The notes beneath the pieces are model-generated. The model saw only the letters and a program-made list of their open reading frames with translations. It made no database searches and was not told the origin of the DNA. Shown here one piece after another: positions 7,900 through 26,470 of a stretch of 30,558 bases of DNA. How positions within the stretch are numbered: the stretch's first letter is position 1; every line of letters starts with the position of its first letter. The DNA is from an uncultured Candidatus Saccharibacteria bacterium (lineage in GTDB: Bacteria; Patescibacteriota; Minisyncoccia; UBA6257; GWB1-50-10). The stretch is taken from the NCBI GenBank assembly GCA_964528655.1, contig CAZGST010000001.1, forward strand, positions 12,061 through 42,618, written 5' to 3'. Position numbers and translations under genes: made by a program.

Positions 7900-9363
7900 A
7901 TGCCCAAAGGCTCTCGAATTCAGATAATCAAATACGCTCCACCCCCAACTGAACTCCCAATCTATGGAAGAGTTGAGCCCGAAGACGTGTCATTTATCGG
8001 CCGCACCAACTACGTGGCCGCCCTTGAAGAAAAAAAGTTCATCTTCGGAATGAAGCGAAAGGACCGCCGCCGTCACCTCTACGTTATCGGAAAAAGTGGT
8101 GTTGGTAAGTCAAAGCTCCTCGAGCTTCTTATGCGCCAAGACGTTGCCTACGGCCACGGTATCTGCGTCCTCGATCCTCACGGAGATGACATCGAGGAGC
8201 TTATCGATTTTATTCCCGAAAATAGAATAGAAGATGTCTGCATTATCAATCCTGCCGACACTGAGTTTCCAGTCTCTTTCAACCCCCTCGCGAATATTGA
8301 TCCGAACTTCAAACACCAACTTACCCAAGGGTTGATCGAAGTATTGGAAAAGCAGTTCGGAGCAAACTGGACTCCTCGTCTTGAGCACGTCTTCCGCTTT
8401 ACCGTCTTGGCACTTTTGGACTACCCCTATGCCACTATGCGTGGGATGATCTCAATGCTCACTGACCGTAACTATCGCCAAAAAGTAGTCGAATACATCG
8501 AAGACGACATGGTAAAGCGCTTCTGGGCAATTGAATTCGCGGACTGGTCAGAAAAGTTCGACACAGACGCCATCATTCCTCTCGTAAACAAACTCGGTCA
8601 GTTCCTCTCCGAACCGATGCTTCGAAACATCTTCGGTCAGAGAGAAAACAAGGTTGATCTTGAAAAAATGATGCAAGAAAAGAAAATAATTCTTATCAAT
8701 CTCTCCAAAGGTAGAATCGGTGAAGAGAACTCTAGCTTCTTCGGCTCCATGTTTATTACCAAACTGAAGCAAGCTGGTATGGCAAGAGCCAAACTACCCG
8801 AAAACAAGCGTCATGACTTCTACATCTACGCAGACGAGTTCCAGAATCTTGTGACAGAGACCTTCGAAAACCTCCTCTCTGAGGCCCGTAAATACGGAAT
8901 CTGTCTCACTATGGCCCATCAATACCTGAAGCAGTTGATTCCTCAAGTGCAGGCTGCGGTAATGGGTAACGTTGGTTCAATTGTTGTCTTTCGCGTAGGA
9001 GGTGAAGACGCGGAACGGTTGGAAGCAGAAATGACCCCGATCTTCAAATCAAAGGACATGATAAACCTTGGTATGCAGGAGTTCTATGTAAAACTCATGA
9101 TCGATGGCGAATCCTATGACCCGTTCTCTGCGGAAACTCTGAAAATTCTCCACCCACCACATCCTTCCTACCGAGAAAGAATTATTGAAAGTTCGCGTCA
9201 GAAATACGCTGTTCCTCTTGAAAAGGTTAAAAGCGGAATCCTAGAAGAAGAGCAGGAGATCTTCAAAAGAAATACTGCTCCCCGCGCAACTACTAGCGCA
9301 TCTGCTGGTGGTGGAAAAGAAGAAAGCGCTCCGGTTGAAAAAGACCCAGAACCGCTAATCTAG
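7900..9363 (+). CDS. VirB4/TraG/HerA-like P-loop ATPase (CPR type IV secretion-associated, DUF87-type)
   Basis: Walker A GKSGVGKS, VLDPHGD, Walker B YIYADEFQN, LSEARKYG..LTMAHQYLKQL, GNVGSIVVFRVG.EDAE. Confidence 0.85.
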   Translation: MPKGSRIQIIKYAPPPTELPIYGRVEPEDVSFIGRTNYVAALEEKKFIFGMKRKDRRRHLYVIGKSGVGKSKLLELLMRQDVAYGHGICVLDPHGDDIEELIDFIPENRIEDVCIINPADTEFPVSFNPLANIDPNFKHQLTQGLIEVLEKQFGANWTPRLEHVFRFTVLALLDYPYATMRGMISMLTDRNYRQKVVEYIEDDMVKRFWAIEFADWSEKFDTDAIIPLVNKLGQFLSEPMLRNIFGQRENKVDLEKMMQEKKIILINLSKGRIGEENSSFFGSMFITKLKQAGMARAKLPENKRHDFYIYADEFQNLVTETFENLLSEARKYGICLTMAHQYLKQLIPQVQAAVMGNVGSIVVFRVGGEDAERLEAEMTPIFKSKDMINLGMQEFYVKLMIDGESYDPFSAETLKILHPPHPSYRERIIESSRQKYAVPLEKVKSGILEEEQEIFKRNTAPRATTSASAGGGKEESAPVEKDPEPLI

Positions 9364-9403: not shown

Positions 9404-9661
9404 ATGAGCAGAACTCAAATCTATCTTCCTAAAACTCAAAAAGACGAAGTAAAAAAGATTGCCCTAAAGGAAGGCACTACCATCTCTCATGTTATTCGAG
9501 TATTTGTGGAACAAGGATTAAGATCTCTCAGAATGGAAAAGAGCACGAAACGTCATAGATCCCTCCTTGATGTACTAGAAGCAGTGAAGCGTTTAAAGGA
9601 AAAAGGACCAAAGGATTTAGCAGCAAATGTAGATAAGTATCTCTATAGAGGAAAAAAATAA
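9404..9661 (+). CDS. Putative antitoxin, ribbon-helix-helix/CopG-like (VapB-type)
   Basis: 85 aa. N-terminal RTQIYL beta-strand plus helices (EGTTISHVIRVFVEQGL). C-terminal GPKDLAANVDKYLY. Lies directly upstream of a PIN gene. Confidence 0.75.
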   Translation: MSRTQIYLPKTQKDEVKKIALKEGTTISHVIRVFVEQGLRSLRMEKSTKRHRSLLDVLEAVKRLKEKGPKDLAANVDKYLYRGKK

Positions 9662-9662
9662 G

Positions 9663-10073
9663 ATTTTTGTCGATACGAGCTACTTTGTTGCGTTCTCCAA
9701 ACCAAATGATTCCTTGCACAAAGAGGCTCTAGTAATCGAAGAAAAGATAAGAAAAGAGGGCATGGAGATAGTTATCTCAAACCTTATTTTCATCGAAACG
9801 GTAACAGTACTCTCACAACAAGTGGGCCATGGGACAGCAATAGCAATGGGTGAGTATCTAGAAAAAGATTTAAAAAATCCGATTATTTTTATCGATAAAG
9901 TGCTTCATGGTCAATCCTCGGAGATATTTAAAAAGAACAAAGACAAAAACATCAGCTTCACAGATTGTAGCGTGGTAGCAGTAATGGAATCAGAGCATAT
10001 TCAAAAACTCCTTACGTTCGACAAGCATTTCCAGAAATTGAGAAAATTTTATGACTTTGATTTCTTTAACTAA
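9663..10073 (+). CDS. vapC: VapC-like PIN-domain toxin; no canonical start codon, so possibly inactivated or using a non-AUG start
   Basis: The frame extends upstream of the ORF-track start (9714) to KIFVDTSYFVA, the first PIN motif. It also has FIET, SFTDC and LTFDKHF. No ATG/GTG/TTG lies between the in-frame TAG at 9630 and IFVD. Start coordinate is provisional (ATT). Confidence 0.75.
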   Translation: MFVDTSYFVAFSKPNDSLHKEALVIEEKIRKEGMEIVISNLIFIETVTVLSQQVGHGTAIAMGEYLEKDLKNPIIFIDKVLHGQSSEIFKKNKDKNISFTDCSVVAVMESEHIQKLLTFDKHFQKLRKFYDFDFFN

Positions 10074-15771: not shown

Positions 15772-16167
15772 ATGCGTGTTGTAGTGGATACGAATGTATA
15801 TATTTCTGCTGTTCTTGGAGGCGGCACATGCGCAAAAGTTTTACAAAAACTCTCTACTTCGGGGAGTTTTGTGTTTATATCTCCGTCCTTAGTGTATGAA
15901 GTAAGGAGAGTGCTAAGAGAAAAGTTTCATATGAGTGCCTCAAATGTAAGGCGTGTCGAAGAAGACATGAAAAGTAGGGCATTCCTTATTCATCCAAAGA
16001 AAAGAGTAAGAGAGGTGAAGGGCAATAAGGGAGATAACAGAATTCTGGAATGCGCGTACGCAAGTAAAGCAGACCATCTTATAACAGGGGACAAGAAACA
16101 CCTACTCGCACTAAAAAGTTTCAAGGGTACAAAGATTATTTCTCCAAGCGAATTCTTGAAGACATGA
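15772..16167 (+). CDS. PIN-family putative toxin (PIN_3 / TIGR00305-like)
   Basis: MRVVVDTNVYISA, D.RILECA..SKADHLITGDKKHLL and IISPSEFL are characteristic of PIN_3 proteins. Confidence 0.85.
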   Translation: MRVVVDTNVYISAVLGGGTCAKVLQKLSTSGSFVFISPSLVYEVRRVLREKFHMSASNVRRVEEDMKSRAFLIHPKKRVREVKGNKGDNRILECAYASKADHLITGDKKHLLALKSFKGTKIISPSEFLKT

Positions 16168-22985: not shown

Positions 22986-23297
22986 CTATCTATTTGTCTT
23001 CTTCTCAAGTGCCGCCACTCTTTTTTCAAGCATTGCAAAGTCGTCCAGAGAAACTTTTTTCTTCAGATCGTACTTTATTATTTCAATATCATCCTTCATC
23101 ACAACAAGAGTCTCGTCTATTTGACCAACCTTAGTCTCCAATCTATCAAGTCTTTGGTCCGCCACAGTGGCAACCTCTAACACTGCCTGTAAATCGTGAC
23201 TCATGGATTCCTGTAGAACCCCTATTTTCTGAACCATGACCGTAAGGTCTCTAGTTTTATCACTCCGTGTCTCCTTCACTTTCTTTTTAGAAATCAT
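22986..23297 (-). CDS. Small coiled-coil hypothetical protein
   Basis: 103 aa with heptad periodicity (QRLDRLETKVGQID, LEKRVAALEKK). Fills the P8-P9 gap exactly without overlap. Confidence 0.7.
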   Translation of the reverse strand: MISKKKVKETRSDKTRDLTVMVQKIGVLQESMSHDLQAVLEVATVADQRLDRLETKVGQIDETLVVMKDDIEIIKYDLKKKVSLDDFAMLEKRVAALEKKTNR

Positions 23298-25127: not shown

Positions 25128-25155
25128 TATCGAAAAGGACGTCTATTAAAAAAAG

Positions 25156-25185
25156 GAGGCCTTATGGCATAAAACAAGGCCCCCA
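25156..25185. terminator. Possible hairpin between convergent genes
   Basis: GG-A-GGCCTT...AAGGCC-C-CC stem with a 12-nt loop, between the stops of P9 and the radical SAM gene. The A-run on its left would read as a U-tract on the minus strand. Confidence 0.35.
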
Positions 25186-25203: not shown

Positions 25204-26394
25204 TCATGCCCATGCAACAGGAGCATAGGCAGGAACAACTTCAACGTATGGCCATAGGTAACGACCTTCCGTTGCAGTGGTCCCATTCAACCGTGCTCGG
25301 GCAGGGGTTGACCTCGCCTGAGCAGGTGTAGATTGTCGCGCCATAGCTGGAGTTGACTCTCGTGCCATCGCCGGCGTGGAACGAGCTTGTGCAGGGGTTG
25401 ACGCACTAACCAATTGAATGAACGGTGCATCTCCTCCATCTAGGCTCTCACCACGCAGAGCACACGCAATCGCAGTGCGCGTTCGTGCCGCAACAGTCAT
25501 TTCGAACACTCTTCGCCGCTCGGCTATGAAATCTTGTCCAAAAAGCACCGACTCGACTCCGCTAAGCTTTACGTTGCCGAGCCTTTTTTCAGTGGAGAGC
25601 ATGCAGAGCGACAAGGCTCCTAAAGGTCCAACAGCGCACATGCCGTCAGCGCATGCACCACATAGCTCCTTTGCATCGACACCAGGCGCGATTGCCGATC
25701 GACCCACGTGTCGCTCCTCATCCTTGCTTATGGCCTCGAGTGGCACTCCATTCTGATGTAGGAATGCTCGGGTTTTCTGAAAATGACCAGAGTTTTGCGG
25801 GAGTTCGATATAGCCCACGCGAATGCGAACCCCGCTCCTAGTAACGGTCCGAATTGTCTGCAGGGTTTCAGCCCAATCATTGCGTTTAGTGATCGCACAA
25901 TGAACTTTGCTATCAGTAGAGTAAAAACTCGTCGCATAAATAATACCCTGATCTCGCATAAATCGAAGCGCCCGCCGATGAGGTGCCCGTGAACCTGTAG
26001 AAAAAAACTCCACGCTCCTGAAACCGAGCAGTTTTGTTAGAACGAGCAGATCAAACCAGAAAGGGCTCAAGAGCGGATCGCCGCCACTGATCTGGATTCC
26101 GGTGCAGCCAACGGACGCTAACTGCACAAAAAGTTCTCTCCAGTTCTTCAACGTCATGAATCCTTCTTCAGGGACCCCACCGCTCCTTTCTGCCTCATCA
26201 CGATCACCCGTAGGACTCGATTTATCACAGCAGTGGACGCATTGCCTCCCACAATTAAATGTAATGAGCGCCTCAAAGAAGCGAAGTGAAATGTGGCTAA
26301 GAGGTACACCCGAAGGCATAATCTCTGCCTCAGCCAATAGAGCTGCATTTCTGGACAGCACATCAGTTCGTCTAGATCCGGCTTGTCTTTGCAT
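25204..26394 (-). CDS. Radical SAM enzyme with a twitch/SPASM-like Cys motif and a fused C-terminal repeat tail
   Basis: CxxxCxxC motif (NCGRQCVHC), SGGDP motif, CADGMCAVGPLGALSLC (= C-x10-G-x4-C). GGAGG lies 4 nt upstream of ATG 26394 on the minus strand. Confidence 0.9.
   Translation of the reverse strand: MQRQAGSRRTDVLSRNAALLAEAEIMPSGVPLSHISLRFFEALITFNCGRQCVHCCDKSSPTGDRDEAERSGGVPEEGFMTLKNWRELFVQLASVGCTGIQISGGDPLLSPFWFDLLVLTKLLGFRSVEFFSTGSRAPHRRALRFMRDQGIIYATSFYSTDSKVHCAITKRNDWAETLQTIRTVTRSGVRIRVGYIELPQNSGHFQKTRAFLHQNGVPLEAISKDEERHVGRSAIAPGVDAKELCGACADGMCAVGPLGALSLCMLSTEKRLGNVKLSGVESVLFGQDFIAERRRVFEMTVAARTRTAIACALRGESLDGGDAPFIQLVSASTPAQARSTPAMARESTPAMARQSTPAQARSTPARARLNGTTATEGRYLWPYVEVVPAYAPVAWA
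25291..25401 (-). repeat. Five in-frame peptide repeats STPAxAR(E/Q) in the radical SAM tail
   Basis: STPAQAR-STPAMARE-STPAMARQ-STPAQAR-STPARAR (37 aa). The DNA copies differ mostly at synonymous positions. Confidence 0.9.
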
Positions 26395-26470
26395 ACAGCC
26401 TCCCGCAGAATTGAATGAAAGTAATTATGTTAAAAAGCAAAGTTTGAGGGAAAAATCTCCCCCAGACAGC

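Follow-up and report, generated by a model that had tools for sequence, protein, structure and literature searches.

A radical SAM/twitch protein with a cysteine-free repeat tail in a family with fused Cys-x-Pro peptides

Can a radical SAM enzyme carry its own peptide substrate as a C-terminal tail? The question is raised by a gene on the minus strand of the window (the whole 30,558-nucleotide stretch of DNA that was analysed), whose product, P0001, continues beyond its radical SAM core into a series of short repeats and an aromatic end (Table 1). A preliminary description, placed at 25204-25440, a range equal to the final 78 residues of the P0001 open reading frame, had suggested that this tail is modified by the enzyme to which it is attached. 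The answer developed below is that P0001 is intact, evolves fast and belongs to an unnamed radical SAM/twitch family whose members typically have a RiPP-like Cys-x-Pro peptide fused to them, and that what happens at its own, divergent tail can be stated with less confidence. The assigned start is matched by the two closest homologs, which likewise have ~25 aa ahead of the common PSG(I/V)PL core start. The terminator is strand-specific, with a folding z of −2.59 on the minus strand versus −0.39 on the plus strand, and since it folds well on the minus strand only, no gene is co-transcribed downstream of P0001. At 26445-26464 on the same strand, 50–70 nt before the start codon, a hairpin is followed by a T-rich run (upstream region fold z −2.5), which is possibly an attenuator.

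Table 1 Features of the P0001 gene and its product in the window.
Feature	Position	Strand	Remarks
Radical SAM/twitch gene with fused tail (P0001, query)	25204..26394	−	396 aa; ORF list, Pfam, AlphaFold
GGAGG ribosome-binding site	26399..26403	−	4 nt upstream of Met1
Strand beta-1 positions 41/43	26266..26274	−	Glu, Leu in P0001; Trp (94%), Glu (95%) in family
CxxxCxxC SAM-cluster motif (C48, C52, C55)	26230..26253	−	following residue Cys versus Tyr in 98% of family
GGE motif altered to GGD	26074..26085	−	Glu in 100% of homologs
Twitch auxiliary-cluster motif CxxC-x15-C (C245, C248, C264)	25603..25662	−	intact
C311, lone tail Cys	25462..25464	−	47 aa past C264; not in CxP
Five STPAxAR repeats	25291..25401	−	aa 332-368; synonymously diverged; occupy place of family's CxP repeats
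Aromatic/hydrophobic C-terminal 18 aa, Y-x-W-x-Y start	25207..25260	−	homologs without counterpart
Intrinsic terminator, 11-bp stem + U7	25147..25184	−	20 nt past stop

The Pfam Radical_SAM model (PF04055) matches residues 44-210 of P0001 at 45.7 bits against a cut-off of 29.5, and AlphaFold predicts a partial TIM-barrel, preceded by only ~35 aa, with a pTM of 0.76, core pLDDT mostly >90 and confidence extending to ~residue 315. The top matches in a fold search with this model are all radical SAM proteins, with SkfB first (Z 25.2, rmsd 3.0, 252 aligned), SuiB next (Z 21.1) and MoaA (19.6), anSME (18.7) and ChlB (18.3) further down. SkfB is again the closest fold for a typical family member (Z 26.8), and a common fold alone does not establish the function of P0001. 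A sequence search of the PDB with P0001 gave no match, and no NCBIfam model, the cyclophane-synthase models included, scored above its cut-off. The twitch-like Cys motif that had been noted in the open reading frame is borne out, such that C245, C248 and C264 are accompanied by strands at 252-255 and 260-262, and the same CxxC-x15-C spacing occurs in 146 of 147 aligned sequences. No second Cys cluster follows C264, leaving one auxiliary set with a beta-hairpin and no second SPASM half.

Is this core still that of a working enzyme? All six cluster cysteines are retained, as are S156, R192, D225, R228, G231 and R232 in a check of the SAM motifs. P0001 keeps 24 of the 28 near-invariant core columns versus 13 of the 84 variable ones, and its core is under purifying selection. 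Across the conserved columns, 36 of 48 (75%) are kept, with a median of 96% among homologs, and only one hit, apparently unrelated, scores lower than P0001. Five changes, W41E, E43L, Y56C, E106D (GGE to GGD) and N133T, all at near-invariant positions, are found in P0001 and in no homolog. Positions 41 and 43 of strand beta-1, which we take to match the substrate-contacting positions of MoaA (Arg17) and viperin (Asn77/His79), probably face the substrate by analogy. The SkfB residues that match E106 and Y56 contact SAM (PMC6231123).

A second question is how general the tail is. P0001 matches 1184 clusters in a search of 1.84 billion representatives, the best of them at 33–36% identity over the core only. 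Tails were counted in those top homologs whose C-terminal region is complete, 142 in all, of which 132 carry a fused tail with at least two Cys-x-Pro (CxP) units, and 965 of the 1020 tail cysteines in the top homologs lie within this pattern; the commonest residue following CxP is Asp. CxP tails are present in all 16 of the twitch-type members listed from viral contigs and in all four plasmid members inspected (Streptomyces, Amycolatopsis and Rhizobium), the latter being annotated as radical SAM protein or not at all. None of the curated NCBIfam models reaches its cut-off for nine family members tested, and in a literature search whose coverage leaves out most subscription journals, no description of a CxP or fused-substrate radical SAM family came up.

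A sister form of the enzyme occurs in genomes of the family, class and phylum to which the window belongs; it has an N-terminal extension that may be RRE-like, a full SPASM domain and a separate CxP-repeat peptide of 40–90 aa whose N-terminal part is Cys-free and in this respect leader-like. Split cassettes with the small CxP peptide were found at L004, L005, L016, L017, L030 and L032-L036, and most of them also encode an HExxH protein of 240–290 aa without a Pfam match. Of 400 other genomes of the class, 7 contain a profile match, as do 12 of 400 from the phylum, and the majority of the matches inspected are radical SAM-CxP loci; such loci are thus not exceptional in this group, whereas the preliminary description had expected RiPP biosynthesis to be unusual in a CPR genome. 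The fused form is present in one genome of the class (L015). A maximum-likelihood tree of the cores, rooted at midpoint and thus not giving the order of fusion and split events, places the fused forms in one clade (98/89) among the split SPASM forms. Mainly because the same kind of peptide occurs both free and fused, the fused tail is the probable peptide substrate in the family, for which the fused-substrate idea is well supported. The suggestion of an in-cis substrate therefore fits the family, but the core peptide there is Cys-x-Pro, which P0001 does not have.

An alternative hypothesis is that the tail binds metal or a cluster throughout the family and is not a substrate, in which case P0001 would need only C311 as a fourth twitch ligand. 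The offset of C311 from C264 is indeed within one residue of the family median of 46 aa for the first tail Cys, and SkfB and BtrN draw twitch ligands from the region past this helix (PMC6231123). However, across the family the first tail Cys lies at widely differing distances, mostly 35–60 aa, and CxP repeats exist also as the small genes with Cys-free leaders beside SPASM enzymes and HExxH proteins, so that a purely metal-binding tail is highly improbable.

For the family as a whole, the chemistry may resemble that of the sacti- and ranthipeptide maturases (SkfB, 6EFN; CteB; AlbA; PapB), which share with P0001 a radical SAM core followed by a twitch domain and include its best fold match. The three twitch cysteines could leave an open site, and the putative substrates of the family are Cys-rich repeat peptides. 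A 5'-deoxyadenosyl radical would take a hydrogen from the tethered tail, a tail Cys would occupy the open site of the three-Cys twitch cluster to give thioethers, as in SkfB or CteB, and the covalent tether would stand in for leader and RRE. By analogy, we infer in-cis thioether formation across the family. P0001 differs from these maturases in that it has no RRE and no separate precursor was found in the 83% complete source genome, its putative substrate is fused, its repeats offer no donor Cys, and at 16% identity it falls under all curated cut-offs.

Several individual family members have unusual arrangements. In gene 78 of the Mycobacterium prophage prophi68-1 (L045:2860-2958), an in-frame TGA lies between the twitch enzyme and a further 31 aa that include five CxP and have no start codon, and the arrangement reads as a broken or read-through fused gene. 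P0048 (L022:156-3835) has an extra domain of ~140 aa past its CxP tail, and its gene precedes two further radical SAM genes. Actinobacterial fused members at L047:3950-6066 and L043:2663-5679 adjoin a protein-isoaspartate O-methyltransferase, or a P450 and a phosphotransferase, and these neighbours could be tailoring enzymes. The Cys-poor tails of homologs P0044 and P0064 resemble, by eye, frameshifted CxP tails.

What, then, of the tail of P0001 itself? Its STPA-led heptamers start at residues 332, 339, 347, 355 and 362, shortly after the position where family tails start, and their spacing of 7/8/8/7 lies inside the family CxP range of 4–9. The preliminary description had counted five STPAxAR(E/Q) repeats; five are present, but the extra E/Q follows repeats 2 and 3 only. 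Its further claim, that the repeat codons are synonymously scrambled through selection on the peptide, holds with exactly the codons quoted: pairs of repeats differ by 3–6 synonymous versus 0–1 non-synonymous codon changes, 7 of 7 third-codon columns vary versus one amino-acid column, and 0 of 50,000 runs of a neutral simulation, which assumes a star phylogeny, gave fewer than three variable columns. The P0001 repeats are thus under peptide-level selection, but while synonymous scrambling indicates selection on a peptide, it does not establish a substrate role. The repeats contain no Cys and the whole tail no CxP. Its net charge is +4, whereas 75% of family tails are not positive and most are acidic. 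Five W/Y residues fall in the final 18 aa, the 3 Tyr and 2 Trp counted earlier. AlphaFold gives a pLDDT <50 for residues 327-396, and the chain is predicted to be disordered from 327. Logan contigs from four groundwater runs (two samples of one study, possibly the source) contain the tail without substitution or indel, so that it is not a one-off assembly error. An atlas search with the tail alone gave a best value of 0.81, within chance, and the predicted complex of core, tail, two clusters and SAM, which scored 0.14 against a mark of 0.32, was given no weight.

P0001 stands apart from the rest of the family. It groups with the CxP-tailed P0002, P0003 and P0048 (100/97) inside the fused clade, its exact place being unsure (long branch). 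Word-indexed protein, genome and metagenome searches and DNA searches at the genus level make it a singleton with no relative closer than ~34%, and searches for close relatives returned only P0001, P0003 and one distant SPASM protein. The contig that encodes P0003 (CAYYDP010000001.1; L012/L013) is filed under a gammaproteobacterial MAG, has the dnaB-recR-rplU and secY-adk-map orders in common with the source genome, and may, from this gene order, be misbinned; its radical SAM gene lies between secY and adk in the opposite direction. The G+C content of the P0001 gene, 52.5%, is at the 99th percentile among the long ORFs of the source genome, which suggests acquisition from elsewhere, and its codon fit is at the 7th percentile. 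Such a horizontally acquired CxP-family gene might have lost its function and be drifting. The composition, the terminal branch of 2.5 (three times the median of 0.83), the 12 changed conserved columns and the insertion of the gene in opposite orientation to an array of 11 paralogs (~580 aa each, 32–46% identical) would all be expected of a decaying relic. However, a drifting gene would hardly have kept 396 open codons, all the cluster cysteines, a ribosome-binding site and a terminator, together with a strong excess of conservation at invariant columns and peptide-level selection on its repeats. Decay is for this reason quite improbable, and this reading and the metal-binding tail fit worst.

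Comparison with homolog tails, which the preliminary description had proposed as a check, revealed that tails are present and mostly of the CxP kind, but neither STPAxAR nor the aromatic end recurs in them. Against family tails, the P0001 repeats match no better than permuted units, whether in frame (P=0.68) or frameshifted (P=0.87), and CTPA is present once in 132 family tails; position is the sole ground for homology between the P0001 tail and a CxP tail. Direct Cys-to-Ser descent of the repeats is not shown by the in-frame result, nor is a frameshift origin by four non-significant tests (P=0.19, 0.52, 0.10 and the 0.87 above). The other frame of the repeats reads NPC twice, a trimer also found in the tails of P0002 and P0003. 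A by-eye likeness between the end of P0001 and a spacer in the P0002 tail has a score of 11, which 15–16% of shuffles reach, and was rejected. The earlier proposal of multi-core repeats with Arg cleavage sites finds little echo in the family, where CxPxR is rare and accounts for 72 of 952 CxP units. A protease that might cut at Arg did not turn up in the 83% complete source genome, and the scanned ORFs of the window include no recognisable protease or exporter that would release a product.

These differences raise the possibility that the P0001 tail is no longer a substrate, its CxP cores having been lost or replaced, by point changes or by an old frameshift with repeat expansion, so that what is left is a basic, disordered segment selected in its own right as a spacer or for binding. 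The target of the enzyme would then be another protein or a small molecule, or P0001 would only bind Fe-S and SAM. The missing CxP units, the charge opposite to that of most family tails, the lack of sequence likeness to CxP tails and the changes in the pocket and SAM motifs are all consistent with this reading, as is the repeat composition, which is nearer to +1-frameshifted than to in-frame family tails (median score 20 versus 12, p=0.0015). However, the frameshift signal is not significantly above that of +1-read enzyme cores (p=0.10) and is independent of residue order, a spacer would rarely need five exact heptamers, and no other peptide substrate was found in the source genome. That genome, which is 83% complete, yielded neither a CxP peptide nor an HExxH partner nor a PqqD match. 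Loss of the substrate role is the main rival to the reading preferred below and only slightly less likely than it, though less likely than not.

Alternatively, the repeats could be a linker that presents the Y-x-W-x-Y end for aromatic cross-links (C-C or C-O) like those of triceptides or darobactin, as had in part been put forward in the preliminary description. The concentration of aromatic residues, their aromatic-x-aromatic pattern, the presence of SuiB and ChlB among the fold matches and a remodelled pocket that could accept a new residue type are in keeping with this. C-O links from Thr and aromatic-x-x motifs have precedents in TqqB and the triceptide/darobactin enzymes, which act on separate precursors and have full SPASM domains. 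The aromatic-x-x core motif is found in P0001 only, homolog ends being W/Y-poor: the last 20 aa lack W/Y altogether in 86 of 142 homologs and contain more than three in none, and the end segment of P0001 has no significant match in any homolog tail. Moreover, the cyclophane-synthase models are all under cut-off and SkfB is clearly the closer fold. The aromatic proposal thus finds no support among the homologs and is improbable for P0001.

The reading that we prefer is that the tail remains an in-cis substrate whose reactive unit would be Ser-Thr-Pro. The combination of peptide-level selection on five exact units with a parallel pocket change is what favours it, and because the repeats have no Cys, the chemistry cannot be thioether formation. 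Hydrogen abstraction at Ser or Thr would be followed by oxidation via the twitch cluster, yielding either an aldehyde of the formylglycine type, the product of anSME on Cys or Ser, or a TqqB-type ether (C-O) link; the altered beta-1 residues would be the matching pocket change, and the product would remain attached to P0001 if no host protease released it. anSME and AtsB are radical SAM enzymes that accept Cys or Ser, and repeat 5 of P0001 reads SxPxR, the sulfatase motif being (C/S)xPxR. Conversion of either residue into formylglycine by anSME (PMC5682303) and the Thr-Gln ether link of the TQQ peptide (PMC8326336) are precedents; AlbA, for its part, does not accept Ser in place of the donor Cys (PMC8172795). 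anSME differs from P0001 in having two fully ligated SPASM clusters, in acting in trans on sulfatases and in its weaker fold match, and no sulfatase (PF00884) was found in the 83% complete source genome. On the features tested, P0001 falls outside the sactipeptide, anSME and cyclophane families. Weighing against the Ser/Thr reading are the singleton status of P0001, which leaves no second Ser-type tail to confirm it, and the alterations at SAM-binding residues (GGE to GGD, and Cys where in the family a Tyr follows the Cys motif). Modification of the repeats in cis at Ser/Thr, other than by a thioether, is therefore a tentative choice, somewhat short of an even chance. The fuller claim is that P0001 modifies itself: its fused substrate would have changed from Cys-x-Pro to Ser-Thr-Pro alongside a remodelling of the pocket, a natural shift from sulfur to oxygen chemistry (aldehyde or ether for thioether) within a family of single-gene enzyme-substrate fusions. 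This claim is on the unlikely side. The most to which the working of P0001 can be likened is a RiPP maturase with tethered substrate and the SkfB fold.

The nearest parallels in architecture are the borosin methyltransferases and the plant BURP cyclases, which resemble P0001 in having enzyme and core peptide repeats in one polypeptide, although enzymes and chemistry are unrelated. No paper on a radical SAM counterpart of these fusions was found, and radical SAM peptide maturases with a fused substrate, if real, would be that counterpart. P0001 shares with the rSAM/Cys-x-Pro family the fused clade, the twitch motif and the place of the tail, and differs from the other members in lacking CxP and having an aromatic end and five S-T-P repeats. 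What is new is this one cysteine-free variant with a remodelled pocket; the fused family itself is a strong, testable lead, and since it is wide, one gene in a laboratory host would test it. P0001, a singleton whose groundwater host is uncultured, would be a more difficult and riskier starting point. It is also a natural experiment on which pocket residues changed once the cysteines vanished and, if active, would show a path from sulfur to oxygen chemistry in such enzymes.

The surroundings of the gene have features of their own. The paralog array (6009-30077, plus strand) encodes eleven Cys-rich proteins of ~560–610 aa, two of which were scanned, neither with a Pfam match above cut-off, and a crude count places their paralogs at roughly 20 loci across the genome. 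It is broken on the opposite strand by the radical SAM gene and a 103-aa ORF (22986-23297), and within it lie RHH/PIN toxin-antitoxin-like genes at 9404-10073 and 15772-16167. A TraD/HerA-like ATPase is encoded at 7900-9363. The sole other radical SAM match of the source genome, at C1:1400-1909 outside the window, falls in a 482-aa frame whose N-terminus resembles the B12-binding type.
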